Positions 10,378 through 56,557 of a DNA stretch of 64,000 nucleotides are shown here, piece after piece. Numbering within the stretch: position 1 is the first letter of the stretch; each line of letters begins with the position of its first letter. The DNA comes from Candidatus Omnitrophota bacterium (lineage in GTDB: Bacteria > Omnitrophota > Gorgyraeia > Gorgyraeales > Gorgyraeaceae), in contig JBDRJN010000015.1 in assembly GCA_043814965.1 (NCBI GenBank), positions 1,503 through 65,502 of the forward strand, written 5' to 3'. The position numbers and the translations under genes were made by a program. A model generated the notes under the pieces. That model worked only from the letters and a program-made list of their open reading frames with translations. It made no database searches and was not told where the DNA came from.

Positions 10378-12543
10378 ATGACCAAGAATTTACAATGGAA
10401 GGTAGCTTTAACTATAGGGGTAGTGATAGTAGCGCTTTTAGGCATGCTGCCTCTAAAGGAAAAGATAAATCTAGGATTGGATCTACAAGGAGGCATGCAC
10501 CTTGTCTTAAAAGTAGATACATCGAAGATCCCTGAAGAGGCAAGAGAAGATGCCCCCAATAGGGCGCTCGAGGTAATACGCAATAGGATCGATCAATTCG
10601 GAGTAAGGGAGCCTCTCATACAGAGACAAGGTACAAATTCTATAGTGGTACAGCTTCCCGGGGTAACGGATAGGGATAGGGCTATCGAACTTATAGGAAA
10701 GACTGCCCAGCTCGAGTTCAAACTTGTAGAAAACAATCCAGAGTTGAATAAAAGGGCAAGGGAAGGGGATGTCCCTGCAGGGTATGAAGTCAAGATAGTT
10801 GAAAAAGACACTCTTCTTTTACACAAAGAGTCAGCCCTTACAGGCGATACCCTTACAAAGGCAGAAGTGCAGTTTGATCAATCTGGTTTTAATCAGCCTT
10901 ATATATCTATAGAGTTTAATTCTAAAGGCGCAAGCATATTTTCGGAGCTTACAGGTAAAAGCGTGGGTGAGAGGCTTGCCATTGTCTTGGATGGCACAGT
11001 TTATTCAGCTCCCAGGATAAATGAAAAGATCCCTTCAGGGAGAGCTCAGATAACAGGCCGTTTTACAGTAGAAGAAGCAGGGGACTTGGCTATAGTCCTA
11101 AGAGCCGGCGCTCTTCCAGCGCCTATTTATATAGAAGAAGAGCGTACTGTAGGGTCTCTCTTGGGAAAAGATTCTATAGAAAGCGGTATAAGGGCTTCCA
11201 TGATAGGGGTTTTACTTGTAATAGGTTTTATGCTTTTATATTATCTTTTTGCAGGTATAGTTGCGAGCATTGCAATGTTACTTAATTTTATTATAGTACT
11301 AGGAGTGTTGGGATGGTTTCATACTACATTGACCCTTCCTGGCATAGCAGGCCTTATACTTGTCATCGGTATGGCAGTTGACGCAAATGTGCTGATATAC
11401 GAACGTATAAGAGAAGAGCTTTCGACAGGCAAACATATTCGCAGCGCTATAGGAGCTGGTTACAATAAGGCCTTTACTACGATACTTGATTCCAACATTA
11501 CGACATTGATTGCAGCAGCGCTTCTTTTTAAATTTGGCACAGGCCCTATAAGGGGATTTGGCGTAACTCTCAGTATAGGTATATTGGCCAGTATGTTCAC
11601 GGCCATATTTGTTACAAGGATAATATTTGATCTTGTGACTACTAATAAGAATTTTACAAGATTGCCGATGCTTCAGCTTTTCAAGAAAACAAATATAGAT
11701 TTTATAAGCAAAAGATGGATAGCTCTCGGGCTTTCTCTTGTAGTTTTGATAGGAGGCATGAGCGTCTTTTTTGCTAAAGGTGAAAAGGCATACGGTATTG
11801 ATTTTACTGGCGGGCAGATACAGGAATATTCATTTAAAGATCATATCAAGATAGATGATGCGAGAAAGGCTATTACGGATATAGGGATAAAGGATGCTAC
11901 CATACAGAGCGTTAAGGGTACAAATCAGATACTTATAAAGACCTCGGAAGACCAGGCCTCTAAGATACAGAAAAAATTTGAAGAGAGTTTTCCGGATAAT
12001 CCTTCAGACCTAATGAGAGTAGAAAAAGTAGGGCCATCAATAGGAAAACACCTCAGAAAAAGCGCGCGGCTGGCAATACTATGGTCTCTTATAGGTATAC
12101 TTATCTATGTCGGGGTAAGGTTCAAAAATATCCTGTTCGCAGGAGCAGGTGTCATAGCGCTTTTTCATGACGTATTTGTTGCGATGGGTTTTCTCGCATT
12201 TACAGGAAGAGAGCTCAATCTTACAATAGTGGCAGCGCTTCTTACGATAGCAGGTTATTCTATAAATGATACCATAGTAATATATGACAGGATAAGGGAG
12301 AATCTGAAGCTTTACAGAAAATCTTCCATGAAAGAGATAATAAATATGAGCGTAAATCAGACTCTTTCGAGAACTGTCCTTACGACACTCACTACGCTTC
12401 TGGCAGTATGTTCTATATTTTTATTCGGGGGAGAGGTGTTAAGGGATTTTTCATTCACTCTTCTAATAGGAATGATCTCAGGCATATACTCCACGATATA
12501 TATAGCCAGCCCGCTCATAATATTGTGGCACAGGAGGACTTGA
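10378..12543 (+). CDS. secDF: Protein translocase subunit SecDF (fused SecD-SecF)
   Basis: 721 aa; two 6-TM blocks with periplasmic domains; typical SecD and SecF motifs. Confidence 0.9.
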   Translation: MTKNLQWKVALTIGVVIVALLGMLPLKEKINLGLDLQGGMHLVLKVDTSKIPEEAREDAPNRALEVIRNRIDQFGVREPLIQRQGTNSIVVQLPGVTDRDRAIELIGKTAQLEFKLVENNPELNKRAREGDVPAGYEVKIVEKDTLLLHKESALTGDTLTKAEVQFDQSGFNQPYISIEFNSKGASIFSELTGKSVGERLAIVLDGTVYSAPRINEKIPSGRAQITGRFTVEEAGDLAIVLRAGALPAPIYIEEERTVGSLLGKDSIESGIRASMIGVLLVIGFMLLYYLFAGIVASIAMLLNFIIVLGVLGWFHTTLTLPGIAGLILVIGMAVDANVLIYERIREELSTGKHIRSAIGAGYNKAFTTILDSNITTLIAAALLFKFGTGPIRGFGVTLSIGILASMFTAIFVTRIIFDLVTTNKNFTRLPMLQLFKKTNIDFISKRWIALGLSLVVLIGGMSVFFAKGEKAYGIDFTGGQIQEYSFKDHIKIDDARKAITDIGIKDATIQSVKGTNQILIKTSEDQASKIQKKFEESFPDNPSDLMRVEKVGPSIGKHLRKSARLAILWSLIGILIYVGVRFKNILFAGAGVIALFHDVFVAMGFLAFTGRELNLTIVAALLTIAGYSINDTIVIYDRIRENLKLYRKSSMKEIINMSVNQTLSRTVLTTLTTLLAVCSIFLFGGEVLRDFSFTLLIGMISGIYSTIYIASPLIILWHRRT

Positions 12544-16919: not shown

Positions 16920-18056
16920 ATGTATATTCCTCAAATCCAATTAAGTAATCTTAAAGGTATAATTAAGCCTCAAAAAGTTATAGTAATTTATGGGCCCAGG
17001 AGGTGTGGCAAGACTACTCTCTTGACGCATTTTTTAAAGGACGTAAAAGATAAATATTTATTTGTTAGTGGTGAAGATATAATAGTTCAAGATTTTTTAA
17101 GCAGCCAATCCATAGAAAAACTCCGTAGTTTCGTAGGAAGCAATAAGCTTTTAGTTATCGATGAAGCGCAAAAGATAAATTATATAGGTTTAAATCTAAA
17201 GTTGATAATCGATCATATGCCTGGGATTAAAGTTATCGCTACAGGTTCTTCATCGTTTGGCCTGGCGCATGAGATAGGAGAGCCTCTTACTGGAAGGAAG
17301 TTTACATTAAAGATGTTCCCTCTTTCTCAATTGGAATTATCTAATATTGAAACAAGGGCTGAGACAATAGCAAGGCTTGAAGAGCGCCTTATATATGGTT
17401 CTTATCCAGAGGTAGTTACAGCTGATGATATATCACAGAAAGTATTATATCTTAAAGAGATGATAAGTTCATATCTCTATAAGGATATCCTGGAGCTTGA
17501 AGGGATAAGGCATTCAAGCAAGATTGTCAGGCTATTGCAATTGTTGACCTTTCAGATAGGAAAAGAGGTCTCATATACCGAACTTGGAAGACAACTCGGT
17601 ATGAGTAAGAACACCATAGAAAAATATCTGGATCTTTTGGAAAAGGCATTCGTTATATTTAAACTGCGAGGTTTTAGCAGGAGTATCAGGAAGGAGATAT
17701 CAAAGAACCCCAGGTATTATTTTTATGACACAGGCATAAGAAATGCGTTGATCAACAATTTTAATATCCTATCTATGCGCGATGATATTGGCATGTTATG
17801 GGAGAACTATATTATTGTAGAAAGATTAAAGGCGCAGGAATATCTACACATGCAGGTAAATAATCATTTCTGGAGGACATATGACCGCAAGGAGATAGAT
17901 TTTATTGAGGAAAAAGATGGGATGCTGCATGGATATGAGATAACATGGTCAAATGCTAAGCGTAATGCGCCTAAAGAATGGCTCGATAAGTATAAAGCCG
18001 ACTATAAGGTTATTACCAAGGAAAATTATTTGGATTTTATAGTGTTAAATGTATAA
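16920..18056 (+). CDS. AAA family ATPase with C-terminal DUF4143 domain
   Basis: 378 aa; Walker A GPRRCGKTT, Walker B LLVIDEAQ; architecture typical of AAA_14+DUF4143 proteins. Confidence 0.75.
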   Translation: MYIPQIQLSNLKGIIKPQKVIVIYGPRRCGKTTLLTHFLKDVKDKYLFVSGEDIIVQDFLSSQSIEKLRSFVGSNKLLVIDEAQKINYIGLNLKLIIDHMPGIKVIATGSSSFGLAHEIGEPLTGRKFTLKMFPLSQLELSNIETRAETIARLEERLIYGSYPEVVTADDISQKVLYLKEMISSYLYKDILELEGIRHSSKIVRLLQLLTFQIGKEVSYTELGRQLGMSKNTIEKYLDLLEKAFVIFKLRGFSRSIRKEISKNPRYYFYDTGIRNALINNFNILSMRDDIGMLWENYIIVERLKAQEYLHMQVNNHFWRTYDRKEIDFIEEKDGMLHGYEITWSNAKRNAPKEWLDKYKADYKVITKENYLDFIVLNV

Positions 18057-18076: not shown

Positions 18077-18104
18077 TTGATTAAATTAGCGTTTTTGGTA
18101 TAAT
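18077..18104 (+). promoter_or_regulatory. Predicted sigma70-type promoter (TTGATT-16-TATAAT) upstream of 1656-aa gene
   Basis: Consensus hexamers seen directly. Confidence 0.5.
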
Positions 18105-18249: not shown

Positions 18250-21200
18250 ATGAAGAACCTTAAATCCATAAAAAAAACAGTATCCATAGTACTTGTAATT
18301 ACATTTTTCCTTACATCCAGCGCATATTCATACGAGGCAAGGCCAACTATACACCTAAGAAGCAATATCTCATTCGGGCCGGACAATAAAACAGAGTTCT
18401 CACAGCGTTTTGATGGAACCATTATAATGCAGCATTATGGCCTATCTAAGATCTTACCTAAAGTCCAGGCAATGCAGTATATTAATGAAGCCCAAAAGAA
18501 TAACATAGTCAACGTTCTTCTTGGCGATAAAAAGACACTTGTGCCTATTGCTCGGATTAATGCCATTGATTTAATTGATGATGGAGACTTGGTCGTCGGC
18601 CTAAATTATAACAATGAACCAGTCATAGCTATAAGCGACTCTTTGCTTACCCCTGAAAAACTCGGCGAGACAGAGATTGCTCCGACCGGCTTTACTCTTG
18701 AAGGCACTGAACTATTATTTTCAACAACTTTAAAATTCACTGTAAATGAGATAAATGATGCAATAAAGAAATATAACGATGGCGGTGTTTATGATTCATT
18801 TACAAAGACCATACAGAAGACAGAGCTGGTCAAATTAATAGAAGATATGGTGAGTAACAAGGAAGAATATACTCCGGAGGCCCTAAAGGATAAACTCGTT
18901 GAAGGCAATAATAAAACCGAGAGCCTTGCAGCTATCGCAGCAATATACTTACGCGGCGGGATGTTCTCTATGGGGACACCAAATATTCTTGAAAGTAACC
19001 TTGGGTTAGGCCTAGGTTTAGGACTGTCAAAACAAAAGAATAGCAGTGATTTTAATAAATTCGGTCAGTGGTATAAATGGGTATCGTCAGAAGTTGCTAT
19101 GGATGACTTGAATATGGACATGTTCAGGGATTATGATTATAGGTCAGTGGGACCAGTGTTAAAACCTGAAATGGTATTTCGTCTTGGTTTAATGTGGGGC
19201 CAAATGGCGTTACAGAAAGCAAAAGAGGCTGGCATAGAAAATAGAAAAGTACTTATAGCAAGGGATGCCAGGAAAATAGAACCAGAGTTAGTAGAGGCAT
19301 TGGCTGCATCACTGCGGTATGCGGGGCTTGATGTTGTTTATACTGCGGAAGATGGCCCGAATGCAGTAACATCTTATTCCTGGGCCGCTCAGGAGATCAA
19401 GCCTCTGATGAGTATATTTATTACTGCAAGCCATGTATCTATGCCAAAAGACCAGATCGTAAGGGGTTTTAAAGTAGCTATGTTGAATGAAGAAGGCGGC
19501 AATCTGGTCAGTTTAACTTCCAAAGAAATAAAGAACCAATCAAAAGATGCTGTTAAAGACCTGATAGAAAATCCTGAAAAGATAAAAGATTTAGAATCTC
19601 AAAAGAAAGGAAGTTTTATTGCTGCTAATGTCGATGAAAATTGCATAAGGATGTGTTCACTTGTGGGCGAAGTTGCTAGTAGTGGAGGCTCTCTCTATGA
19701 TCTGGCAAGAGAGTTAGAATCCTCTGATTCACCGGAAGATGTTATTACAAAGTGGGAAAATAAAGTCGGGCACACAGAGCCTTTAAAAGGCATGAAAGTA
19801 GTTGTGGAGGGTTCCCATACGCCGAGCGGAAACCTAGCAGCTAATACATTCAAGCAATTAGGAGCAGATGTGGTCTTGATAAACGGAGATATCCTAGAGG
19901 TAGAGGGCGAACATAATGCTGACCCATCCAAAGATAAAAATTTAACGCAGTTGAAGCAAACAATAGATACTGAAGGCGCTGATTTTGGTATAGCATTTGA
20001 TCTTGACGGCGATAGAGGTGCTATTGTTGTGCCTAAAAGATCCGAAGATGATTCTGGTATCAGTTTCGAGACTCTTGCTCCTGACAGGCTTATAGTTTCT
20101 TTGTTGCCATATTATATGGAAAAATTAGGATATGATCCTACAGTTACAGGTAAAAAAGTAGGTGTTATACGCGATGTATTAGGGACGTTCGGCGTAGATG
20201 ACCAGGCAGAGGCTTTGGGGATAGAGGCATTCCAGACAGACGCTGGCTATGTATTCTTGAAAGCAAAGAGAGCTGATCTATTACAGCAGGGCTATGGGAT
20301 ACCTATATATGGCGAACTTTCAGGCCACACCTGGCAGGATGTCACAGGGGAATTTGAGAATCCTGTGGCTGTTGCAGCTGTATTTAGCGTAATGGTAAAG
20401 GATAAAAAATATAAAGAAGATAATACCACCACATCCTTAAATCCTTTCTACGAAGCATTTACCGAAAGCACTATACCTTATAAACAGGCATCCAGGTCTC
20501 AGCCGCTCTTTGCCGGGGAATTTTTGTCAGAACTTTCGTCAATGCCGGCTAATAATACAGGATGGGCTTATAATCCTGATAATCCTACAAAACCTCCGCA
20601 ATTAATAATTGCCTTGGGAAAAGACGAAGGGATCAAGAGATTGCAGAAAGAGTTTACCGTAGGTAAATCTTATAATACACCGGCAGGGGAGTTGATTGTA
20701 AAGGAATTTAATACATATCAGGATGCAGTAGATGAAGGAGGGCTTTATAGATTTGCTGATATTGTATTTGAGCAGGATGGCAATGTCGCAGGCAGGTTTA
20801 TATTCAGGGCTTCTTCAAATGACCCGACATTTGTGTGTTCTTTCGAGACCCCGGTATGGGTAAATGAAAATACTGATTCAAAGACAGTAAACGACAGGTA
20901 TATTTCAATCGGAGGGATTGTTTTTGATTGGCTGGAGCAGAATAAGATCGCCAGGGTGACAGGAGATGTTGATTATGCCAATAAAGAATCCACGGAAAAG
21001 GTTGTTCTGGTTTATAGAGGTGCTAAAAATACAGAAACAGCAGCTGATGTAGCTGTAATTAGCAGTTCTGAAGATGCGAATATTCCAGAAGAAGAAACAA
21101 CTTTAATGCAGAATTTTGGCTTAGATGCTATACTAAGGCCAGAAACTGCAAGAGACCTTCTTACACCTTTATTAAGTAAAGATAACCCTACGATAAAGAT

Positions 21201-23220
21201 GTATACAACAAAGGATGATTTTAAAGAAGTATCTTTTGACGATACGATCCTGTCTTTTATAGAAGATAAAAATCTTATATTAGGAAGAAAAGGCGATGAA
21301 TTAGTAGTGGCTTATTCTACGCCTATTTCTAGATCAAGACGTGATTTCCTGAAAGGCTTAGGTGCTATGGCTATCGGGACAAGTCTATTGGGTTTTCTAG
21401 CATCATGCGAAGAACCTACTAAGCCAAAGGATCCTGTGATCCCGGATGAAGGAGAGCTTAATACTCATCCATATGAATTTATGAGAAAAGGGCTTTCTCT
21501 AAGTGAAGTATCTAAAAAAGCAGCGGATTGGATCCTGGGGCAAAAGTCCCCAGTTAGCTGGGTAATAAGCTATGGCTCTACGCCAGAACATGCGAGCGAT
21601 AATATAGCCTGGAGCTTTGACCAGGGAACGACAATGACTGTATTTTCACAAATGGATGGAGAATATTTAGCACTTGCAAAAATAATCGCTGATAAAATGG
21701 TTGCAGAGCAGGATACAAACGATGATACATGGTATGATGGATATATGGGTAACTATGTCCCAGAAAAGGGCAATAAGTTAGTAGGAAATATAGTTAGCGT
21801 AGGAAGAGGCCTTGTAGAAAAATATCTTGTAGAAACAAGTGAAACTAAATATATTGAAAGCGCTAAAAAAGCAGGAGATTCAATACTTTTAAGATACTGG
21901 AATACGCTAGGTAGCGATAAAGGGTTTTTTAGAGGCGGCCTTGAAAATGGCGTAGATGTTTCCTGGGCATCCACAGAGCATAATTCAAGAGCAGCTATAT
22001 TCTATTATAGATTGTGGGTAGCTACAGGAGATGATAAATACAAGGACGTGGCTTTAAAAATAGCTAATTGGCTAAAAAGTGAGATGTGGGCAGGAGATCA
22101 TTTCCATGTAGGATATGATCATGGTACTAATATAAATCTGTACTACAATCAAGATGCAGATGCACAAGTTACGCCAATTTTACTTTTCAACATGCTTAAG
22201 GAAGATGGAATAGTGGGGGATGAATTCGATCCAAATAAGTTCAATACACTTAAATATCTCGATGACAATTATAGGCATAAGATCACTTTTATTGGTACAG
22301 ATGGTTTGAAAAGGACAGTAGACCTATATGGAAAGGTTAAAGGCATCGTTCACGTATGGCCTGAAGTAAGTGATAATATTGCAGCTGTATGCCAGGCTTG
22401 GGGCAATACTATAAGAAAAGACGAGACATTAACTGACATAGCAAAGCTACAGTATGTTGATGGCGGCATACCTTATTTATTAGGTAAAGACGGAGTCCCG
22501 TATGGATGGACTGACCAGGGCCCTGGAAGTTTTCCTCATCCTTCAATAGCTTCAAGTATATCTTTTATAGCCGCAAAAGACCTTGGCCCATATTGGTTCC
22601 CTGTTATAAAAAGAAGTACAGATACTGATATTGGTACTAAGTTTGAGGATAGTGCGATCGAGGATATCGCAGTAGCAGGAACAGGTGTTGCGGCTACTTT
22701 AGTAACAGGACTTACAGGATCAGAAGTTAGTATTGAAGACATCTTAAACATAGAAGATAAAGTAGAGATCAAATTGGACGGAGAAACAGTAGAAGATATT
22801 GAATATTTAAAGCTTATGAATAAAGCAAGCTGGTTGGGTAGCACTGGTACCAAGAGCAGTGACGGAGTATATCATATCAACCTGCTTAAAGACAAGATAG
22901 ACCCTGTTGTCTTTAGCGGGGAGTATGTAGAAGATGAGCCGTATGAGTTTTTGCAACGTTCTAGAGAAGAACTCAACAAAAATAAAACCCCTGTTATTTT
23001 AGTGACAAGCGATGTACAGGAAAAAAGGCTTAAAAATGATATAAGGTTTAGAGCAATGCTTGACCATGAGGAATTATTTATAGTAAGGGCAGAGCCTGAA
23101 AGGGTGGAGTCTCTTATCGCTCTAGGCACAGACGGCATATCTTTTGATGTTAGCCAGATCAGTGTTACTAAACTGATAGAGAATAAAGACATAATCATGT
23201 CTTATCTGCACCAGAAGTAA
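18250..23220 (+). CDS. Giant exported protein (1656 aa): Sec signal peptide; degenerate alpha-D-phosphohexomutase (PGM/PMM)-like domain; internal Tat-motif/lipobox segment; C-terminal (alpha/alpha)6-like domain
   Basis: N-term MKNLKSIKKTVSIVLVITFFLTSSAYS; PGM/PMM-like motifs IARDARK (cf GRDGR), ITASHVSMP (cf TASHNP), FDLDGDRG (cf FDGDGDR), GELSGH (cf GEESGH), RASSNDP (cf RASNTTP); internal SRSRRDFLKGLGAMAIGTSLLGFLASC. Confidence 0.6.
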   Translation: MKNLKSIKKTVSIVLVITFFLTSSAYSYEARPTIHLRSNISFGPDNKTEFSQRFDGTIIMQHYGLSKILPKVQAMQYINEAQKNNIVNVLLGDKKTLVPIARINAIDLIDDGDLVVGLNYNNEPVIAISDSLLTPEKLGETEIAPTGFTLEGTELLFSTTLKFTVNEINDAIKKYNDGGVYDSFTKTIQKTELVKLIEDMVSNKEEYTPEALKDKLVEGNNKTESLAAIAAIYLRGGMFSMGTPNILESNLGLGLGLGLSKQKNSSDFNKFGQWYKWVSSEVAMDDLNMDMFRDYDYRSVGPVLKPEMVFRLGLMWGQMALQKAKEAGIENRKVLIARDARKIEPELVEALAASLRYAGLDVVYTAEDGPNAVTSYSWAAQEIKPLMSIFITASHVSMPKDQIVRGFKVAMLNEEGGNLVSLTSKEIKNQSKDAVKDLIENPEKIKDLESQKKGSFIAANVDENCIRMCSLVGEVASSGGSLYDLARELESSDSPEDVITKWENKVGHTEPLKGMKVVVEGSHTPSGNLAANTFKQLGADVVLINGDILEVEGEHNADPSKDKNLTQLKQTIDTEGADFGIAFDLDGDRGAIVVPKRSEDDSGISFETLAPDRLIVSLLPYYMEKLGYDPTVTGKKVGVIRDVLGTFGVDDQAEALGIEAFQTDAGYVFLKAKRADLLQQGYGIPIYGELSGHTWQDVTGEFENPVAVAAVFSVMVKDKKYKEDNTTTSLNPFYEAFTESTIPYKQASRSQPLFAGEFLSELSSMPANNTGWAYNPDNPTKPPQLIIALGKDEGIKRLQKEFTVGKSYNTPAGELIVKEFNTYQDAVDEGGLYRFADIVFEQDGNVAGRFIFRASSNDPTFVCSFETPVWVNENTDSKTVNDRYISIGGIVFDWLEQNKIARVTGDVDYANKESTEKVVLVYRGAKNTETAADVAVISSSEDANIPEEETTLMQNFGLDAILRPETARDLLTPLLSKDNPTIKMYTTKDDFKEVSFDDTILSFIEDKNLILGRKGDELVVAYSTPISRSRRDFLKGLGAMAIGTSLLGFLASCEEPTKPKDPVIPDEGELNTHPYEFMRKGLSLSEVSKKAADWILGQKSPVSWVISYGSTPEHASDNIAWSFDQGTTMTVFSQMDGEYLALAKIIADKMVAEQDTNDDTWYDGYMGNYVPEKGNKLVGNIVSVGRGLVEKYLVETSETKYIESAKKAGDSILLRYWNTLGSDKGFFRGGLENGVDVSWASTEHNSRAAIFYYRLWVATGDDKYKDVALKIANWLKSEMWAGDHFHVGYDHGTNINLYYNQDADAQVTPILLFNMLKEDGIVGDEFDPNKFNTLKYLDDNYRHKITFIGTDGLKRTVDLYGKVKGIVHVWPEVSDNIAAVCQAWGNTIRKDETLTDIAKLQYVDGGIPYLLGKDGVPYGWTDQGPGSFPHPSIASSISFIAAKDLGPYWFPVIKRSTDTDIGTKFEDSAIEDIAVAGTGVAATLVTGLTGSEVSIEDILNIEDKVEIKLDGETVEDIEYLKLMNKASWLGSTGTKSSDGVYHINLLKDKIDPVVFSGEYVEDEPYEFLQRSREELNKNKTPVILVTSDVQEKRLKNDIRFRAMLDHEELFIVRAEPERVESLIALGTDGISFDVSQISVTKLIENKDIIMSYLHQK

Positions 23221-23242
23221 TAACAATAAGAATGTTTTAATA

Positions 23243-23283
23243 AAAGGCTAAGCTTATAAAAAGGCTTAGCCTTTTTATTTTCT
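23243..23283 (+). terminator. Rho-independent terminator after the 1656-aa gene
   Basis: aaaggctaagc...gcttagccttt stem followed by ttatttt. Confidence 0.65.
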
Positions 23284-23414: not shown

Positions 23415-23903
23415 GTGATAGTTATGGGAGATATAAGACGATACAAAGAAGATGGATATATTTATTTTATAACAACTAATACATACTCTAATAAAGGAAT
23501 ATTTTTAAAAGAAAAGCCGAGTTTATTCCTAAAATCTATTATTTCTTATTATAGGTTTGTATTTAGATTCAAACTGTATACATATTGTATTATGCCAGAT
23601 CACATACATATGCTTATACAGCCTCTTACTAAACAATACGACATATCAACTATAATGAAAGAGATCAAGGGTACGTTTGCAAGAGAATATAATATTATGA
23701 TACGTAAGAGAGGAGATATTTGGCAGAGGAAGTTCTACGATTCTATAATAAGAGATGAAGAGAGCTTGCTTATTAGAATTAATTATACTTTTGAAAATCC
23801 AGTAAGGAAAGGAATAGTCAATAAAGCCACGGAATATAAATTTTCGAGTGCTAGGTCATATATTTTAGGAGAGGAAGATTATGTTACTGATAGATATAAT
23901 TAA
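23415..23903 (+). mobile_element. REP-associated tyrosine transposase (RAYT; IS200/IS605-like Y1 HUH transposase)
   Basis: 162 aa; HUH motif PDHIHMLI; catalytic-Tyr region INYTFENPVRKGIV (RAYT signature Y-x-x-x-N-P-V-R-x-G-[LI]-V); flanked by REP-derived repeats; codon usage more AT-rich than neighbours. Confidence 0.75.
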
Positions 23904-37140: not shown

Positions 37141-40100
37141 ATGAGAAACTTTGTAAAGATATCAGGTATTTCAATAATATTTGCTATGGTCATTGCCTTT
37201 GCTATCCCTCAGGTTTTAGGGGAAGGGCCTAGTAAGTGGCCAGTAGAGTTATCCAAAAAGGAGTTCTATAAAGAAGATTATATTACTTTACTCGGCATGT
37301 TTAGTAAGACGATAGAAATAACAAAGACTTATTATGACCCAGGGCCTATCAAGATGGGCGATGTCAGCGGTGATGGTGTAAGTGATATAAGCTTTATAGC
37401 TACTAATAGTACCACTGGATATAACAGTGTATATCTACTCAATAAAGATGGTGTTATTTATGATGGATGGCCTAAAGAACTTGATTGTAATTCTGGAGTT
37501 GCACCAGCGCTTGTAGATCTAGACGAAGATGGTAATATGGAGATTATAGTCAATACAACCTCTGATGGCATAAAGATCTATACGTGGGAATTTGATGGAA
37601 GCCTGGTCAAGAACTTTCCAATAAAAATACCTGGGACTGAAGGTTCTAGCAGTATTGATGAAAAAGGCAGATACTATTTAACCACCACTAGTTATAGTAT
37701 ACCTGCGATAGGAGATGTAGATGGGGATGGCATAGAAGATCTAGTTGTTACAGGGACTACTATAAAGGATTATGGAAATCAGCTAAAAAATGAGACTATA
37801 AATAAGATCTGGGCAGTCAGCCTGGGAAGCGGTCAGATGACATTAAGTGGCTGGCCTGTAACCCTGGAAAAAGGCGAAAACTTACCCTATTGGAATTCTC
37901 CAGCTATAGCTGATATAGATAATGATGGCACAATGGAAGTAATTATAGGTATAAATAGGCCTTGTGGTGATAAGTTAGATAAAGATACATACCGCGTATA
38001 TGTATTTAACTGCGATGGAAAGCCTTTTAATGAGAATTGGCCGAAGGATCTAAAGCTTGATAACATTACTTTAGAAAAGACATTAGGCATTACCTCGGAC
38101 TTTTATAGAAGTAAGGATAGTAAGTTTGGTTTTATGACTTCCCCGGTTGTTGCAGATGTAAACGGGGACAATAAGGAAGAGATAGTTATAGCTGGTTCTT
38201 ATCTAAATTATTTTATAGCGCCTAATGAATTAGGATTGGGCTCAGAATATGACACACCTTTTATAGAAGCTAATTCAATATTGTATGTCATGGACAAAGA
38301 TGCTTTTATACTGGAGGGATGGCCCAGGATAATAGGGACCAGCCTGATACATCAGGCATTCAAATACATTGACCCGTCTATAAGTATAGGTGATGTAGAT
38401 TACGATAGCATTCCTGATATATCTTTACCAGGGTACGATGGCAATATCCATATATTGAATTATATGGCAGATGAGATTCTCAAGATAGAAAGCCTTGATT
38501 TTTATAAAAAATATTTTTATACATTAATAGGCGATATAAATAATGACTTTAAAGTCGATATAGTAGCCCCTGCATTAGAAAATATAATATGCGCTTTTGA
38601 TACAGATGGAAAATACCTTAATGATTTTACGCCTAAAAGGATGGAGGGAGATACTGATTTTGTAAACCCATTGATCGTAGCATGCCCTGCCATAGACAAT
38701 ATAGAGATGAGGGATTATCTCAGTATAATCTCTCCTTCATCTAAAAATAAAAACGTATCTAACTATCCTGCAGGCATAATAAATAAATGGGATGCTGGCG
38801 ATACTGGTTTGATCGGAGATATCAAAGAGACATCTATTATAGATTGGCCCCAGTTTGCATATGACGCCAAGAACACCAACTGGCACTTGTCTAATGAAAA
38901 GACCAACCGCTCCGGGGATGATAAAGATGATAAATTGCAGAAAAAAAATACTATCAGCGGTTATGTGGCGTCTTCTATCCAAGATGACTATGGCAGAAGA
39001 CTGTTTTATTTTGAAGGAGTAAAAGTCCGGGCAATAGTCTGGGATCCTATATTAAAAGTATATGGCCCTATACATTCTGAGGTTTTTACTGGGCCTGATG
39101 GTACATATGAGTTTCCAGAAGAGGACATGGTTCCTGGAACTATTTATTCGATCGTAGCTAATCCTTTGGAAAAGGCGCCTTATCCAAAATTGGAGTATAA
39201 AGAAAAATACGTAGGCGATGTAGTAGAATTTGCGTTTGGCCCGATATATAAACACTCTGATTGTTTTGGCCAGGCCTTTGATAGAGAAACAGGCAAGGCA
39301 CTAGAAGGCGTGACTGTAAAACTAAGGGCAGACTCTGATTTTAAGATCTATTCCGGGGTTTCTAATAATAATGGGTGGTTCTTGATCCAGGGCTTACCTT
39401 ATCTTTCTTTTTATGATGTTTTTGCTTCAAAGAAAGGATATAAAGAAGAACAGAGGGGGCCGATAGATATCAAACAGGATCCTTTTTACAGGATAACAAA
39501 TCCTGACCTTTCTCTTGTCCCTATTCCAAAAGGCAGTATCTCAGGTAAAGTAATGGATGGAGCTATCGGAGTAGAGGGTATGGTTGTTGAAGCTATTGAT
39601 AAAGACGGGGATATATATTCAGATACTACTGATGCATCAGGCGAGTATGAGATAAAAGATCTATTGGAGAATTATAACTATACCGTTACCGTGGGTGAAA
39701 AAGAAGGTTATAAGGGCTCTATCCCTACAAAACATGAAGTAACTGTAGTAGGTAATATCTTAAATATTGATTTTACTCTTCAAAAGACAAGTTATAGCAT
39801 CTCCGGAGTGATATACAATGAAGATGGTTCAAAAAGATTACATCCTAGCACAGTTAAATTAGAAGGTACTTCTGCTAGCGTACTGACCATGGAAGATCCT
39901 GACAAACCAGGAGAGTTTGGATACTATGAAGTCGCAGGCCTGGAAGAAGACGGATATTATATCCTTACTGTTAGTAGTGATGGTTATATACCTGTAAGCC
40001 GAGGCTTTATTGATCTAAGAGAAGATACAAAGTTTGATTTTCATCTTAAAAAGCCCCCTGAAAGATATAATATTACTGTAAATGTGCGGGATGAAAATAA

Positions 40101-40806
40101 TAAACTAGTGCCTCGAGCGCATGTAGGTATAGTGGGGTTTGGTTATGATATAGATGTTGGATATGATGGCATATTGGAGTGGGAAGGATTATTTGGAGGG
40201 GAAAAGACTTTTTGGGCTTCAAAGGATGGGAAATACGGCGAGACCAAGGCTGTGATCGAGGAGAATGGAGTAGTTGTAGATATAGTATTAAAGGAAAATA
40301 GATACTCTCTTTCAGGCATTGTAACTGAAAGAGGCGCTAATATTCCTTTAAAAGATGTAATAATAAAAATAAAACTACCAAATGGCATTGAAAAAGCTGC
40401 AAGGTCAAATTCCAATGGTTATTACCTTATTAAGGACATGCCTAATGGTAAATATATGGCATCGTGTACCAAAGAAAGAGAAGGAGGTATATGGTATCAT
40501 GGGTATAGATTGGAAGTTGTTATTTCAGGGAAGAATAAGACACTGGATCTAACGCTTGCTAAGGGAGAATATCTATATACTGTTACTGGTAGAGTAGTTG
40601 ATGAAGATGGCGACCCTGTAAAAGGCGCTACTGTAAGGCCAGATGGGCTTGGACAGAGGCTTACTACAGATAGATCAGGCGAATATTCATTATTATTGCC
40701 TGCTAAGACATATTTATTTATAGCTGAGCTGAATGGTAAAAGAGGAGAGAGGTCTATCACTGTAAAAGAAGAAAATACCAGAGTGGAAGACATTATTATC
40801 AGATAG
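37141..40806 (+). CDS. Giant surface protein (1221 aa): signal peptide, FG-GAP/VCBS-type beta-propeller repeats, C-terminal carboxypeptidase-regulatory-like (CarboxypepD_reg) repeats
   Basis: N-term MRNFVKISGISIIFAMVIAFAIPQVLG; repeats GDVSGDGVSDISF, VDLDEDGNMEII, GDVDGDGIEDLVV, ADIDNDGTMEVII, ADVNGDNKEEIVIAG; C-term units DGTYEFPE, SGEYEIKDL..YNYTVTV, SGEYSLLLPAKTYLFIA. Confidence 0.7.
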   Translation: MRNFVKISGISIIFAMVIAFAIPQVLGEGPSKWPVELSKKEFYKEDYITLLGMFSKTIEITKTYYDPGPIKMGDVSGDGVSDISFIATNSTTGYNSVYLLNKDGVIYDGWPKELDCNSGVAPALVDLDEDGNMEIIVNTTSDGIKIYTWEFDGSLVKNFPIKIPGTEGSSSIDEKGRYYLTTTSYSIPAIGDVDGDGIEDLVVTGTTIKDYGNQLKNETINKIWAVSLGSGQMTLSGWPVTLEKGENLPYWNSPAIADIDNDGTMEVIIGINRPCGDKLDKDTYRVYVFNCDGKPFNENWPKDLKLDNITLEKTLGITSDFYRSKDSKFGFMTSPVVADVNGDNKEEIVIAGSYLNYFIAPNELGLGSEYDTPFIEANSILYVMDKDAFILEGWPRIIGTSLIHQAFKYIDPSISIGDVDYDSIPDISLPGYDGNIHILNYMADEILKIESLDFYKKYFYTLIGDINNDFKVDIVAPALENIICAFDTDGKYLNDFTPKRMEGDTDFVNPLIVACPAIDNIEMRDYLSIISPSSKNKNVSNYPAGIINKWDAGDTGLIGDIKETSIIDWPQFAYDAKNTNWHLSNEKTNRSGDDKDDKLQKKNTISGYVASSIQDDYGRRLFYFEGVKVRAIVWDPILKVYGPIHSEVFTGPDGTYEFPEEDMVPGTIYSIVANPLEKAPYPKLEYKEKYVGDVVEFAFGPIYKHSDCFGQAFDRETGKALEGVTVKLRADSDFKIYSGVSNNNGWFLIQGLPYLSFYDVFASKKGYKEEQRGPIDIKQDPFYRITNPDLSLVPIPKGSISGKVMDGAIGVEGMVVEAIDKDGDIYSDTTDASGEYEIKDLLENYNYTVTVGEKEGYKGSIPTKHEVTVVGNILNIDFTLQKTSYSISGVIYNEDGSKRLHPSTVKLEGTSASVLTMEDPDKPGEFGYYEVAGLEEDGYYILTVSSDGYIPVSRGFIDLREDTKFDFHLKKPPERYNITVNVRDENNKLVPRAHVGIVGFGYDIDVGYDGILEWEGLFGGEKTFWASKDGKYGETKAVIEENGVVVDIVLKENRYSLSGIVTERGANIPLKDVIIKIKLPNGIEKAARSNSNGYYLIKDMPNGKYMASCTKEREGGIWYHGYRLEVVISGKNKTLDLTLAKGEYLYTVTGRVVDEDGDPVKGATVRPDGLGQRLTTDRSGEYSLLLPAKTYLFIAELNGKRGERSITVKEENTRVEDIIIR

Positions 40807-40830
40807 CACGCTGTGTTATTAAATAACATG

Positions 40831-40870
40831 TAGCCTTGTAGGGGAGCCTTAAGGCTCCCCTACAAGGCTA
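40831..40870. repeat. Extended REP hairpin tagccttGTAGGGGAGCCTTAAGGCTCCCCTACaaggcta (18-bp stem)
   Basis: Perfect inverted repeat seen directly; immediately after giant gene stop. Confidence 0.8.
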
Positions 40871-41076
40871 CACAGGTTCCCCTACATATTTAGGAGATAA
40901 TAATTAGATTATTATAGTATCAACTAGTTGCAGTTATTAGAGTTACAAAAACTATATAAACTATGCAAAAAAAGTATTTTCTATCCTTGAATTTTTAGAA
41001 ATATGTGGCATACTTGAAATAGAGAAATAGGAGGCAGAAACACTGAGACTTTGAAAACTTAATGTTTAACCAGTCA

Positions 41077-41217
41077 AAGGGCAAACCCAGAGTAATCTGG
41101 GGGCGCAAAGCTACGGGTCCTTGGTTATAAGGATGGCCGAGTTACCAAGGATAGCCGAGCTAGTTGATTGATGTGAAGGAGGAAGGATCAAATATCTCGG
41201 CTTTTTTGTTGCTTAAA
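41077..41217 (+). ncRNA. sRNA-like unit 1 (conserved 5' block aagggcaaacccagagtaatctggggGcgcaaagctacgggtcc, ends in intrinsic terminator)
   Basis: Block duplicated at 41337-41379; 3' gccgag...ctcggc + T6. Confidence 0.45.
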
Positions 41218-41336
41218 AAGGAGGCAGCGAAATAATAAGAGGAGGCAGGGTAAGACGCTTTAAGGAGGCACACTTTTTAGTTAATCCTTAAGACAATTGA
41301 ATATTAGGTATTATTTATAATAATACTTTCAGTAAA

Positions 41337-41504
41337 AAGGCAAACCCAGAGTAATCTGGGGACGCAAAGCTACGGGTCCTAAATCAGGAAGTAGCTGACA
41401 CTTAAGTGTCAGCTGCAGTTGATTAGGGCAGCCGGGTCGCCAAGAAAGTTAATTTATTTTTAGGATAGCCGAGCTTACGTTTAATACAAAGCTCGGCTTT
41501 TTTA
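41337..41504 (+). ncRNA. sRNA-like unit 2 (same 5' block, internal perfect hairpin agctgacacTTAAgtgtcagct, ends in terminator agccgagctt...aagctcggct + T6)
   Basis: Tandem paralog of unit 1. Confidence 0.45.
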
Positions 41505-41749
41505 TTTAAGTGAGGACGTAAGCTATGGAACGAAGTGAACATAACTTACTGTCCGAACTTATCCCGAGCCGCCATGGGTAAGTATGATGCGGCGAGGGAG
41601 AAATTAGAGAGAAAGGAAAACGCAATGACTAGAGTAATAGGATCCGAACTCATATATAACCCATATCCGATAATAGATGAGAGGCTTTTTCTCATTTTTA
41701 TAATAGTAGCAGGTTTACTAATAGCAGTATAACCAAAAGGGGGCTCATC

Positions 41750-44700
41750 ATGAAAACGATCATTAAAAACTCAAAAATTTTCACGATCTTTATTGTAACT
41801 GCCATGGCATTTTTGATCATGTCTTCGCATGCTTTTTCGTATGACCCGAATGATCTATTCTGGTATGGGAATGATATGCATCCCCAGCAGAATAAAGACA
41901 ATCTCAATCTCTATCCAGATGATTATACGCCAGAAGGCGAGCCTTGGCGCGAGATTAGTTATGAATACGGCTATTATGACGAAAATCGTGAACGCGACGA
42001 ATATGGTAGGATCGAGGTTGATCAATACGGATTCGGGTATGGCCATGACAATCTACCAGATGATGAACCATGCTATTATCTATGGCCTTTACGAGAAACA
42101 GAAAGACGCGGCCTTAATTGTCCAAAAGCCTGGGACCTTTGGGTCAGAGGCAAAGGTATTGTAACTGCAGTGATTGATTCAGGAGCGTATATAGATCACC
42201 CTGACTTGGTCCAAGCTGATGGGAGATCAGCTATTCTTGAGTACAGGCCAGGTGAGTTTGCAGTAAAGAATTTTATAACCGGCACTACAGATGTAACTGA
42301 CAATCTTGGGCAGGGTACTGCTATAGCAGGGATAATAGCTGCTGGTATGAATAACTGGGGTGCTCAGACTGGTTGTATCGGAGTTGCACCTGAGAGTAAG
42401 CTCATGATATTAAAAGTAATAGATCACCCTACGCTAAACAATGACTTGAATAATACCAAATCACTGGAAGATTTAGTAGAAGAAGCTATTTATTATGCTG
42501 CTGGTAGGAGAGATGATGGATCAGGAGTTCCTCCGGAACATATTGCAGATATTATTAATATCGGAGTCAGAGTTAATCCTACAGTCGGCATTAAAGAGGC
42601 ATTAAAATATGCAAATAGCCTGGGATGTATTATAGTCGCTCCTGCAGGTGGAGATCTAGCAGCTTTAGATGGTGTTATTGGTGTAGGCGCAACCTACCAT
42701 GATGGAACTCATCTTGGAGAGGATAAAAAGACCGGGACCAAAATCCAAGGAGCTAGTGTCTATGCGCCAGGCATAGAAATAGTCTCTTTATGCCCCCCGA
42801 GGGGATCAGGGGAACCAGGAAAACCAACCTTTGATGAACTTGTAAAAGCTTTGCCAAATAGAAGGCAGATCTTTGAATTCCAAAGATATGATTATGGCCA
42901 TTATTTTCACCTTATGCCTTATATTCAAAAAGAAGATGGCCATGCGCTTGCAGCAGCTCACATATCAGGCGTCATAGCGCTAATACAAGAATATAAAGAA
43001 ACGATAGATAAGGGGGATCTATGGGGCGTTGTAAAAAAATACACACCTGAAGAGATAGAGACCCTCTTAAAATTTGCAGCAGTAGAGAAGGGTATCCCTG
43101 ATATTAGAAAGGCTTTAGACCTGGTAGGTTCTAGGGCTGTGATACCGATAGCCAAGATCGTATTGGATAACAAAGGATCGTTTAGAGGGACTATAGATAT
43201 TAAAGGTATATTAAAAGGAAATCCAGGCAGTACTTATGTACTTGAATATGTGAATAATGACCCCTCAAAAGGTGTACAGGGTGTTATAACGGACGGATCC
43301 CTGGCTTCAGAGGAAATAAAGGAGCTTTACCTTGGCAAGCTGGATACTGCAAAATTAGAAGACGGCAGCTATACCTTGAGGTTATATCTACATACAAGTA
43401 TCATGGCCTTAAAAGACGAGGTGGTTATAAATATCAACAATTCTTGTTTGGAAGGTTGGCCTATAGTATTAAAGGGCGCAGAAGGAAATTATATCGGGCT
43501 ATCTGCGCTAGGTTTAGGGTCTCCCACCATAGCTGATCTGAATAATGACAGTAAGAAAGAGGTTATACTAATAGGTAATATAAACGAAAGAGGGATTATT
43601 GATATCAGGGATTATAAAGGCGAGAGGTTTAATTGTATGCCTGAATCAAAGGATGAATACGCATGGAAAGAATACGGGCCCATCACAGCAAGTGACGGAA
43701 GCTCGGATGACAATTTTGGTATATCAGTTTTTATGGATGCTCAATTTGCTGTAGTCGGAGCTCCTAAAGATGGCAGAGGATTGTATTCGGGCTCAGCGTA
43801 TATATTAAGGAATAACTATAGTAGCGGTTGGGCAGAGGAAAAAAAGCTTATTCCAATCGATGGAGCCGGAGGGGACAGGTTTGGCATATCTGTAGCTGGC
43901 GCAAGACTTGTTACAACTGAAAGAGTTATTATAGGAGCCGGTAATTCCGGAGGAAAGGGCGCTGCGTATATATTCAGGAATGATAGTAAAACATGGCCGC
44001 AGGAACGGAAACTTATAGCTCCTAATGGTAGGCCCGGAGACATGTTCGGTAAGTCAGTAGCTATGGACATTACCAATTTTGAATTTAGCATGCTGGGAGA
44101 ACATAATAGATTGAGAGCAGTTGTAGGCGCGCCATGGAGCGAAGGCCGTTCACTGCAAACTGGCTCAGTATATATCTTTGTACGTGATGATTTTATATGG
44201 AACCCTGCACCAGAACAGATATTAACTGCAGAAGATGGAGAGGAGAGGGATGAATTCGGAGAAGCAGTCTCTATGTATGAAGATGTTATCTTGGTAGGCG
44301 CTCCATCTAAGTCAAATGGAAAAGGGGCCGCGTATATATATAGGTATAGTTTAGAGACGCGTAAATGGGAGTATGAACAAAAATTAACAATAACTAATGG
44401 AGAAGACGGAGATAAATTTGGCTGTTCAGTTGCGCTGGAAAAAGATTATGCTGTAATAGGCGCATGGGGCCGTAATAATGATAAGGGAGCTGTATATGTA
44501 TATAAATATGATGCTAATATGAAAACTTGGGGACAGGAACCAGAACAGGTGTTGGAATTAGAAGGCCTTAGTTCCCAGGCTAGATTTGGTAATTCAGTCT
44601 CAATCACTAGAGATCCTAGTGATGAGAATAGAACAAGCGATAGGATAGTGGTAGGGTCTAATTCTATGGAAGGCAAATCTAATTCTGTATATGTTCATAA

Positions 44701-49144: not shown

Positions 49145-49145
49145 C

Positions 49146-49265
49146 TGTTAGGGGAGCCTTAAGGCTCCCCTACAATGTGGATAATTAGAATATGGGGGAC
49201 GCGTTACAAAAACATACACTTTGGCGCCTGATCCGCGCTAGGGTGGCCTCCTTCAAATAACGCGT
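49146..49265 (+). repeat. 120-nt composite repeat copy 1: REP hairpin (tAGGGGAGCCTTAAGGCTCCCCTAc) + 67-nt long-range hairpin (gacgcgtta...taacgcg)
   Basis: ~95% identical to 52796-52917. Confidence 0.7.
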
Positions 49266-49273
49266 TCTCCACT

Positions 49274-49301
49274 TTGAAAAACGAATAAAATATGATATAA
49301 T
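49274..49301 (+). promoter_or_regulatory. Predicted sigma70-type promoter TTGAAA-16-TATAAT for the 1148-aa gene
   Basis: Hexamers seen directly. Confidence 0.45.
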
Positions 49302-49369
49302 ATATCAATATTATATCGTTCAAAAATAGAGTAATATTAAACATGGTTTTTAACAAAAAGGAGGGTAAT

Positions 49370-52983: not shown

Positions 52984-53009
52984 TTTTAAAAATAAGGTAG
53001 GTATTGTAT

Positions 53010-54722: not shown

Positions 54723-54723
54723 T

Positions 54724-55926: not shown

Positions 55927-56435
55927 TAAAGCTAAATATCTCAAAAAGAGAAAAAAACATACTGATCGTCACGATCGCGGTCGTATCCATGGTCCTGATA
56001 TACAATCTTGTGTTGGATGGTGTCTTTAAGAGTTGGGTAGGGTATAATAAAAAGATATCAGATGACATAAAAGACCTTGAAAAGAATATAGAGTTATTGA
56101 AAAACAGGAACCTTGTCATCAGGCACTACAATTCATATGTCTCCAATATCAATACCATGCCCAAGATACTCTCTATAATAGAACAAAATGCATCATCGTT
56201 GGGCATTACCACATCCAATATAAGGCCCAGGCCTGTCATAGATCATGGTATATGCAAGGAATATATAGTAGAGCTTCATATTGAGGGAGGGCTTGGCAGT
56301 ATAACCAAGCTTATGTCCCAGCTTATAGAGCATCCTGTCATCATAAGCATAAAGAAGTTTGAATTGAGAAGGACCGAGCAAGAGAGCTCTATTTTTAAAG
56401 GTATATTTGTCATGTCCAAAGCAGTCCTCCAGTAG
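55923..56435 (+). CDS. GspM/PilO-like bitopic inner-membrane protein
   Basis: 170 aa; N-terminal TM ILIVTIAVVSMVLIYNLVL then periplasmic domain; overlaps upstream stop (translational coupling). Confidence 0.5.
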   Translation: MIKLNISKREKNILIVTIAVVSMVLIYNLVLDGVFKSWVGYNKKISDDIKDLEKNIELLKNRNLVIRHYNSYVSNINTMPKILSIIEQNASSLGITTSNIRPRPVIDHGICKEYIVELHIEGGLGSITKLMSQLIEHPVIISIKKFELRRTEQESSIFKGIFVMSKAVLQ

Positions 56436-56557
56436 GCCCAAGTTTTTATTACCCATTATACGGCAAAAGTTAAGAAAAAAATCCAACCTGCCTTGACATA
56501 GGCTTTTTAGTAGAGTATACTTACTCTCTGAGTAGAGAGTAAGCTATTACTATCTAT

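Follow-up and report, generated by a model that had tools for sequence, protein, structure and literature searches.

The gene described here lies on the forward strand of a 64-kb stretch of DNA (the window) from a Candidatus Omnitrophota bacterium, and it is proposed, with a probability of roughly 0.6, to encode one 1656-residue mosaic protein of the cell envelope. Behind an N-terminal leader and a small N-module, the chain carries a phosphohexomutase module of the phosphomannomutase/phosphoglucomutase (PMM/PGM) type, then an acidic linker that leads to a probable second copy of N sub-domain A and, far inside the protein, a segment with the appearance of a twin-arginine translocation (Tat) signal ending in a lipobox (the cassette); a tether, an (alpha/alpha)6 six-hairpin domain (domain X), a disordered linker and an alpha/beta C-module complete the protein (Table 1). 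Among all proteins found, this is the only one in which the mutase and domain X occur together. The open reading frame (ORF) was confirmed exactly as an earlier note on this DNA had drawn it, in coordinates, strand, length and ATG start, and its identical database entry, ABIG92_04450, stems from a 122-kb contig of a Candidatus Omnitrophota metagenome-assembled genome (MAG). A Shine-Dalgarno (SD) sequence, AAGGA, sits 6-10 nt 5' of the ATG, and the GC content at third codon positions (GC3) is unremarkable from module to module (0.29-0.38). In one of the explanations that the earlier note had offered, an enzyme fold of cytoplasmic type had been fused to a Tat lipoprotein that is exported; as an evolutionary description, this is supported by a mutase-less ortholog (P0029), by the mobility of the mutase module and by the stand-alone secreted and lipoprotein forms of domain X, each of which is taken up below.

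The mutase module was identified by profile matches as well as by its motifs. Pfam PGM_PMM_I (E = 2.1e-9) and PGM_PMM_II (E = 5.6e-12) both exceed their gathering scores in the query and match all 11 of the family modules aligned here; PGM_PMM_III falls under the cut-off in the query (E = 0.02) but matches 9 of the 11 modules, at best with 2.9e-6. The comparison with PGM_PMM_I-IV that had been proposed earlier was thus positive for the first two domains, positive for the third in most of the family but not in the query itself, and negative for the fourth. NCBIfam and PDB sequence matches agree on a mutase of the PMM/PGM/GlmM type, and the best PDB relative of the family profile is PMM/PGM of P. 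aeruginosa (8e-21), with Ser108, the three metal-binding Asp residues and Arg247 aligned. The motifs ARDAR (337-341), TASHVSMP, DLDGDR, GELSGH and RASSNDP were all located, in the order previously stated, at residues 337-859, and a further mutase motif, FRDYDYR, was recognized at 292-298. As in other alpha-D-phosphohexomutases (AlgC-type PMM/PGM; PDB 1K35, 2H4L and 3UW2), domains I-III are detected, and the loops for phosphoserine, metal and sugar can be aligned position by position; unlike those enzymes, the module is ~650 instead of ~460 residues long, its loops read TASHV(S), DLDGDR and RASSNDP, its domain IV is not statistically recognizable, and it is embedded in a leader-bearing multidomain protein. 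The assignment of RASSNDP to domain IV is putative and draws on its motif and position.

The module had also been described as degenerate, a view that was rejected because the catalytic motifs are invariant across the family. TASH, DLDGDR, GExSGH and RASxND do not vary in the alignment of the 11 modules, which share 45-68% identity, and the signature TASH...D[LG]DGDR is kept in 27 of the 27 family members. The departures from the canonical motifs, such as the Val that replaces the Asn after the His of the phosphoserine loop, are family-specific, and the recognizable catalytic residues are all present (Ser394, His395, Lys408 within GFKV, Asp584/586/588, Arg589, Glu689, Ser691, His693 and Arg853/Ser855). 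With the exception of domain IV, the module holds a divergent but apparently complete active site and not a decaying one, and the mutase is probably active.

The same module was found in 27 Omnitrophota proteins, the query and 26 others, at 45-68% identity and at very variable positions in the chain. The other 26 are 915-2755 residues long, and only query residues ~270-925 are common to them; the neighbors of the mutase in the family include PGI, transaldolase, enolase, TIM, FBPase, UDPGP, HAD and receiver domains. The module is regarded as a mobile unit, which in this gene was inserted into an envelope-protein backbone. Among the members of the family, P0023 joins a leader and a fully canonical PGI (Pfam, 1e-189) to the mutase module and one receiver domain, and P0007 combines a leader and a HAD domain with the mutase module and as many as three receiver domains; neither protein has a convincing helix past the leader. 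Receiver domains behind an export signal are hard to rationalize.

The second module of the protein retains all the hallmarks of a Tat lipoprotein signal, and because of this the chain holds a built-in topological marker. SRRDFLK (residues 1029-1035) is followed by GLGAMAIGTSLLGFLA as the h-region and by the lipobox L-A-S-C (1050-1053), the whole lying at nt 21334-21408. The signal thus begins at residue 1026 of 1656 instead of at the N-terminus, and the lipobox is likewise internal. A pattern that combined the Tat motif, an uncharged stretch and the lipobox gave one match in the protein, 0 in 20,000 shuffles and none elsewhere in the six-frame translation of the window, so that the cassette is not regarded as a chance match; the internal twin-arginine signal with an L-A-S-C lipobox, to which attention had been drawn earlier, is therefore present, with a sub-threshold score for Pfam TAT_signal. 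The flanks of the cassette carry charges of +3 on the N-terminal and -3 on the C-terminal side (CEEPTKPKDPVIPDEGE).

The cassette recurs in the relatives of domain X. In at least 15 of them, a basic patch inside the chain, a helix of moderate hydrophobicity, a Cys and a tether rich in Pro and Thr come directly before this domain. Tat motifs were recognized in P0037 (SRRDFLK, at about residue 1380 of 7051), P0034 (SRRDFLR), P0033 (TRRGFLG), P0049 (TRRTFLQ) and P0050 (SRRAWLG), and P0060 has a lipobox cassette at about residue 3640 of 6065. Across the collected proteins, 13 instances of RR.F[LIVM] were counted, where shuffles gave 3.3 +/- 1.9; most of them are internal and upstream of domain X. 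The Cys is kept at the lipobox position in 16 cassettes, with residues -3 to -1 varying, and in 14 of the 16 the N-terminal flank carries more positive charge than the C-terminal one. The conclusion drawn is that the cassette belongs to the domain X module, which tends to keep its signal inside longer proteins. P0053 has three lipobox-like cassettes of one polarity, at residues 389-407 (ending VSAGC, then GSGG), 576-594 (IVPGC, then GSGSGSS) and 853-871 (VVPGC, then GGGGGSS); since repeated signal-like segments of the same polarity cannot all span the membrane alike, processing or non-spanning segments are hinted at. In P0032, a second Tat-like motif, STRRDFIAMIIGSGIGKK, was observed at residues 637-657, after domain X and before the glycosyltransferase domains.

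Two known classes of protein invite comparison with this arrangement. With ordinary Tat-exported lipoproteins, the query shares SRRDFLK, a Gly/Ser/Thr-rich h-region, L-A-S-C, acidic residues past the Cys, a Pro-rich disordered tether and a globular domain; it differs from them in the position of the signal. Dual Sec-Tat-integrated membrane proteins, such as the actinobacterial Rieske protein Sco2149 and others (Keller et al., 2012, PMC3471235; Tooke et al., 2017, PMC5449189), likewise have an internal RR motif directly before a final, weakly hydrophobic helix (the hydrophobicity of the cassette being a crude sum) and then a globular domain. In those proteins, however, the RR loop is cytoplasmic after Sec-inserted helices, positive charges lie past the helix and the exported domain binds a cofactor, whereas in the query a single N-in leader precedes the cassette, the C-flank is acidic (-3), a lipobox is present and no cofactor domain is evident. 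Genes for TatA/TatC, Lgt and LspA were found neither in the 64-kb window nor in the loci of relatives that were compared. A search of the literature returned nothing on these genes and no paper on Tat or twin-arginine signals in Omnitrophota, and a full-text search for 'internal lipobox' was also empty.

The earlier suggestion that a region like an (alpha/alpha)6-glycosidase follows the cassette is confirmed, at the level of the superfamily, by an AlphaFold2 (AF2) model of residues 1054-1656 with a mean predicted local distance difference test (pLDDT) score of 87.1. Foldseek matched the modeled domain to MmpH, GH76 alpha-mannanases and AGE-family epimerases/isomerases, with E values from 9e-11 to ~1e-7, target-normalized TM-scores of 0.54-0.73 and identities of 10-16%. 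Domain X shares the (alpha/alpha)6 fold of these enzymes; unlike them, it has conserved motifs of its own, FDQG and W-x-STEHN-x-RA. No Pfam family matches it in the query, and a HMMER search of 1.84 billion representatives yielded 72 relatives, the distant ones with weak Pfam matches to GH76, GH127, GH88, LanC-like, pectate lyase, GlcNAc 2-epimerase and squalene-hopene cyclase families, every one of which is of six-hairpin type. Scanning genomes with the family alignment added no more than two contigs, both of them short and from Omnitrophota. In 22 relatives domain X starts no more than 75 residues from the N-terminus, and 12 of these pass a hydrophobicity cut-off for an adjacent signal, with about five more signal-like by eye; P0072 (LSAC) and P0084 (IIGC) are of the lipoprotein type among the 12, and P0042 (CSGC) is similar and just below the cut-off. 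In P0041, a Ser/Thr kinase is followed by a transmembrane (TM) helix and domain X. By family, domain X would accordingly be counted as extracytoplasmic and often lipid-anchored. Its mannose-related structural neighbors, taken with the PMM-like mutase, may hint at mannose chemistry.

One close homolog of the fragment from the Tat motif onward was identified: P0029 (766 aa; 50% identity), which is encoded at locus L001 of a sister MAG. The two loci are syntenic, with QueA, TGT, SecDF, cation-efflux (CDF), RecJ and radical SAM proteins 70-83% identical and RecG following. P0029 has the same leader, a small N-domain (sub-domain A), an internal GRRSFLGG...SLASFLNSC, domain X and the C-module, and it is without the mutase. 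Relative to it, ~880 residues are inserted in the query between the leader-proximal domain and the cassette; the best explanation is that the insertion would comprise the rest of the N-module, the mutase module and the probable second small N-domain. This last segment, residues 952-1019, matches P0028 and P0029 from residue 57 onward weakly but in colinear fashion (E = 0.035 each), with a shared hydrophobic pattern in the alignment. P0028 is paralog-like and has the leader, two copies of the N-module and the C-module in common with the query. A hidden Markov model of the C-module, run over all collected proteins, found it in five only (the query, P0028, P0029, P0031 and P0033), and neither Pfam nor a PDB profile search gave it a meaningful match. 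At the other end of the chain, residues 1-269 as the query of a homolog search gave no match, not even to the protein itself.

Several results weigh against reading the gene as one mosaic envelope protein. The close orthologs available for comparison amount to one, P0029. PGM_PMM_IV matches 0 of the 11 family modules, and a profile of the C-terminal third of the module, searched against the PDB at E values up to 10, found no mutase. Pfam TAT_signal scores the cassette at 16.1 bits against a cut-off of 22.7 (E = 0.011), and the cassette is weakly hydrophobic, its crude sum over 19 residues being +3.3 kcal/mol. No other hydrophobic segment was found in residues 40-1015 (maximum Kyte-Doolittle value, 1.27); the leader and the cassette are both N-in/C-out with no helix between them, and consequently no simple topology fits both. 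If the whole chain were exported, the conservation of the RR pair, the Cys and the tether would be left unexplained, and the C-module would be put on the side opposite to its position in P0028. If, on the other hand, the mutase were cytoplasmic, a canonical leader would have to be ignored that cannot be told apart from the leaders of genuinely secreted proteins of the window. In P0032, finally, domain X could be cytoplasmic: it runs into GT2/Bac_transf/GT4 domains with only a hydrophobic stretch of 10-11 residues between. As proof of a cytoplasmic domain X, P0032 was considered and is weakened by the second RRDFI motif and the short hydrophobic stretch that precede its glycosyltransferases.

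For the mosaic protein, we infer the sidedness of its modules, the role of the cassette and the sugar specificity as follows. The leader would bring the chain to the Sec translocon, the cassette would be the only other membrane-active segment, and domain X, on the evidence of its family, would end outside the cytoplasm and act on a glycan or sugar. All members of the mutase family that bear a leader have zero or an even number of hydrophobic helices between the leader and the mutase, so that the mutase would always lie on the trans side of the leader. Tentatively, the whole chain may be exported by Sec with the weakly hydrophobic cassette slipping through, an arrangement that fits both the leader and the family location of domain X. 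Only slightly less probable is that the mutase side is instead cytoplasmic and that the cassette works as an internal Tat/lipoprotein signal. This would accommodate every hallmark of the cassette, and PGM, PGI and receiver domains are cytoplasmic in character; a precedent exists in internal Tat signals that are tethered and whose helices are low in hydrophobicity (Tooke et al., 2017, PMC5449189). More explicitly, and improbably, the cassette could be a working signal for both Tat and the lipoprotein pathway: Tat would export the folded domain X, Cys1053 would be lipidated and signal peptidase II would cut the chain, leaving the mutase on the cytoplasmic side. In a bolder variant, the leader would export the chain from a predator, and the internal signal would then act at the membrane of the prey cell.

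The rival that survives best, itself rather unlikely, treats the protein as a type I membrane protein with a cleaved Sec leader, in which the N-module and the mutase are outside, the cassette is a relic signal serving as a stop-transfer anchor (N-out/C-in), and domain X and the C-module are cytoplasmic. This is the outcome of the standard rules for a signal peptide followed by one hydrophobic segment, and the class with a signal peptide plus TM segment (SP+TM) by DeepTMHMM makes up 39% of long Omnitrophota proteins (10.64898/2026.06.07.730766). It is also consistent with the match between the leader and those of the secreted proteins in the window, with P0028, where both N-modules would be on one side and the C-module on the other, and with P0032, where glycosyltransferases of cytoplasmic type directly adjoin domain X. 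The top structural neighbors of domain X, MmpH and AGE epimerases, are cytoplasmic enzymes, and this was counted in its favor. The polarity of the cassette, however, is that of a signal (N-flank +3, C-flank -3), and it has the same direction in 14 of 16 cassettes; its hydrophobicity is weak on the crude scale given above, and the conserved Tat consensus, Cys and acidic/Pro-rich tether would be without a role at the cytoplasmic face. Stand-alone relatives of domain X are mostly secreted or lipoproteins, and the mutase would be left outside with no obvious substrate pool.

Independently of topology, the mutase module might be a non-catalytic pseudo-enzyme, for example a sugar-phosphate-binding or scaffold domain, a proposal judged improbable. 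The replacement of the conserved Asn by Val in the phosphoserine loop, which is accompanied by a four-residue insertion (TASHVSMPKDQIVRGFK vs TGSHNPPDYNGFK), would be in keeping with it, as would a domain IV that neither Pfam nor a PDB profile detects, a length ~200 residues beyond that of the canonical enzymes, and the lack of an activator pool that an exported mutase would face. Yet all of the catalytic residues listed above, from Ser394 to Arg853/Ser855, are kept, and the invariance of TASH, DLDGDR, GExSGH and RASxND over 45-68% identity is the pattern of a working active site.

Far less probable is a nested gene, whereby GTG 21307 (codon 1020) would start a second product, an ordinary Tat lipoprotein, and the long ORF would also make, or only seem to make, the fusion. 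The in-frame GTG that had been reported before the cassette is indeed present, at nt 21307 and not 21308; it stands nine codons before the RR pair (eight before SRRDFLK), with the purine-rich AGGAAGAAAAGG 13-25 nt upstream, and in another locus, L004, a TTG accompanied by AAGGA stands 12 codons ahead of the RR. No ATG, GTG or TTG occurs, however, in the 40 codons before the RR in L001, where the equivalent Val is encoded by GTA, and L003, in which the ORF for P0030 is cut at both contig ends, has only TTG codons and no SD. In the window itself the SD spacing of ~13 nt is long, the purine-rich stretch is accounted for by Gly/Arg/Lys codons, and no promoter-like site was seen just upstream of 21307. 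For cassettes at residues 1400-4000 of giant proteins, moreover, a nested start offers no general solution. As a general mechanism it was rejected, there being no conserved start codon or SD across the four loci compared and none in the closest ortholog. Both orthologs do have, after the SD-like stretch, an out-of-frame ATG that is stopped at once: ATG AAT TAG at 21296-21304 of the window (region 21282-21309), which ends two bases before GTG 21307, and ATG TAG at 10440-10445 of L001 (region 10421-10445). This feature is probably a by-product of Gly/Lys/Asp codons.

Least credible is an artefact, in which the loss of a stop codon or a frameshift made one frame of two neighboring genes, or the MAG contig is chimeric: the source is a metagenome-assembled genome and this one record alone has the architecture of mutase plus domain X, but the cassette is also internal in the independently assembled L001, L003 and L004 and in many database proteins, the frame is unbroken with homologous protein sequence on both sides of every junction, a repeat scan found no internal DNA repeats, the GC3 of the modules is ordinary (0.29-0.38), the contig is 122 kb long and synteny is conserved on either side, and a promoter-like site and a terminator belong to the gene itself. 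The one close ortholog, P0029, carries the cassette inside one open frame and not in a separate gene behind a stop codon, the arrangement that by the earlier note would have refuted its observation. The nested start and the artefact are both held to be unlikely because independent assemblies show the cassette inside open frames.

Table 1. Features of the gene and its product; residue numbers refer to the 1656-residue protein and coordinates to the window.
Feature	Coordinates	Strand	Basis or remarks
Promoter-like site TTGATT-16-TATAAT with TG	18077..18104	+	Consensus scan, 10/12 matches; pattern match only
Whole gene	18250..23220	+	1656 codons plus TAA, ATG start; identical to NCBI MAG protein ABIG92_04450
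Sec-type leader, residues 1-28, MKNLKSIKKTVSIVLVITFFLTSSAYS followed by Y	18250..18333	+	n-region rich in K; hydrophobic core of 12 residues; -3 and -1 occupied by small residues
N-module, residues 29-269 (disordered 'HLR' stretch, sub-domain A, sub-domain B, GLGLGLGL linker)	18334..19056	+	
PMM/PGM-type phosphohexomutase module, residues 270-925	19057..21024	+	Pfam I + II; family comparison
Phosphoserine loop TASHVSMP, 392-399 (Ser394)	19423..19446	+	Aligned to TGSHNP/Ser108 of PMM/PGM; TASH invariant in family
Metal-binding loop DLDGDR, 584-589	19999..20016	+	Aligned to DGDGDR; invariant
Sugar-binding loop GELSGH, 688-693	20311..20328	+	Aligned to GEMSGH of 3uw2; G, E, S, G, H invariant
Putative phosphate-binding loop RASSNDP, 853-859	20806..20826	+	R, A, S, N, D invariant; domain IV not matched statistically
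Probable, degenerate second copy of N sub-domain A, residues 952-1019, directly before cassette	21103..21306	+	Weak colinear matches
Internal Tat-type/lipobox cassette, residues 1026-1053, ISRSRRDFLKGLGAMAIGTSLLGFLASC	21325..21408	+	Motif, pattern test, internal conservation in relatives
Pro/Glu/Lys-rich tether, residues 1054-1072	21409..21465	+	pLDDT <50 over 1054-1071; similar tethers after Cys in relatives
(alpha/alpha)6 six-hairpin domain (domain X), residues 1073-1450	21466..22599	+	AF2 pLDDT mostly >90; Foldseek; HMMER relatives
Disordered linker, residues 1451-1489, with weakly hydrophobic IAVAGTGVAATLVTGLTGS	22600..22716	+	pLDDT <50; Kyte-Doolittle 1.41
Alpha/beta C-module, residues 1490-1656	22717..23217	+	pLDDT ~90
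Terminator-like hairpin	23242..23275	+	14-bp stem plus T run, directly after stop codon

The N-terminal signal peptide, which the earlier note had also assigned to the Sec type, looks Sec-like by its n-region, core and -3/-1 residues (cleavage-type site AYS-Y) and by its close likeness to the leaders of two proteins in the same window, a secretin (ORF 58152) and an S8/FG-GAP protein (ORF 41750, ...SSHAFS-YDP). For a signal peptide it is unusually conserved, as K-K-x-x-S-hhh-I-T-F-x-x-T-x-N-x-Y-S-Y (window 18250-18370; P0004, P0028, P0029, P0031, P0033, P0034, P0035 and P0038). About eight residues past it lies a conserved h-L-R-[AST]-x-[SQ] motif (IHLRSN, FHLRIP, DHLRAQS, SHLRAKS, TLRSP), in a stretch that is disordered in the AF2 model and that may act as a motif for sorting or processing specific to this lineage. 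Between the N-module and the mutase, a few residues short of the boundary, a dipeptide repeat, GLGLGLGLS, was noted at residues 255-263 (19012-19038); it may be a flexible joint left by insertion. Toward the other end of the protein, residues 1473-1491 were considered as a third membrane helix and rejected, the pLDDT being <50 and the flanks acidic.

The gene is flanked by ORFs for an AAA_14/DUF4143 ATPase (16920-18056) and an IS200-like (Y1_Tnp) transposase (23415-23903), neither of which has a match in L001, where the order is radical SAM, the ortholog and RecG. The locus has the appearance of a hot spot for rearrangement, consistent with an insertion of the mutase module. All 38 ORFs of at least 250 aa in the window are on the forward strand, the only minus-strand ORFs listed being six that are shorter and overlapping; GC skew is positive in every 2-kb bin, and the cumulative skew climbs monotonically to 5.3. 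Together, gene orientation and GC skew indicate a strong co-orientation of genes on one replichore. Further along the window, three large leader-bearing proteins (1221, 2464 and 1148 aa) with FG-GAP and CarboxypepD_reg domains, one of them also with Peptidase_S8, are encoded at 37141-52789, and a cluster resembling those of type II secretion systems and type IV pili (T2SS/T4P) occupies 53004-60218 with a GspE/PilB ATPase, PilN, PilO, an AAA_22 ATPase, a GspC-like protein and the secretin. The large proteins and the T2SS/T4P-like cluster match the conserved secretion locus described beside giant genes (West-Roberts et al., 2023, 10.1101/2023.11.21.568195).

The Omnitrophota are tiny, probably predatory or parasitic bacteria in which giant proteins have been described. 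TIM, PGI, FBPase, PGM/PMM and aldolase domains were reported in 'Archaeovorin'-type giants of this phylum (West-Roberts et al., 2023, 10.1101/2023.11.21.568195), and a complete-genome preprint of 2026 placed PGM Pfams in a sugar-metabolism module ('Module 2') and assigned SP+TM topologies to 39% of the proteins by DeepTMHMM (10.64898/2026.06.07.730766); both preprints describe glycolysis-type enzymes behind export signals in enormous proteins, and neither mentions twin-arginine motifs or lipoboxes. The protein described here resembles these giants in its phylum, in having PGM/PMM domains behind an N-terminal signal-like leader, in the puzzle of glycolysis-type enzymes predicted to be outside, and in the T2SS/T4P-like cluster and large secreted proteins nearby. 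It differs from them in size, at 1656 aa against at least 10,000 aa in the 2026 survey or at least 30,000 aa for a 'giant' of West-Roberts et al. (2023), in joining the mutase to a six-hairpin domain with an internal Tat/lipobox cassette, and in having a mutase-less positional ortholog. PGM-type domains behind signal peptides in Omnitrophota giants are thus already on record in the two preprints and the internal Tat/lipobox cassette is not; the query is a small member of a known but unexplained class.

What is added to that class is a cassette that travels with the six-hairpin module, a pair of orthologs of which one has the mutase and the other lacks it, and a topological conflict made explicit. 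The size of the giants puts them beyond experiments; a protein of 1656 aa poses the same puzzle in tractable form, with the mutase-less syntenic ortholog as a natural control. The finding bears on the sidedness of enzyme modules, on internal signals as relics, anchors or processing sites, and on the idea that the helices of giants would be captured signal peptides. If the cassette were a working Tat and lipoprotein signal, one gene would give rise to two products, a cytoplasmic mutase fragment tethered to the membrane and a lipoprotein glycanase that is exported; it would be a case of a bacterial polyprotein cleaved by way of the lipoprotein pathway. In that event, the principle of the captured signal could generalize to the Omnitrophota giants and could explain the origin of their many helices as well as their processing.

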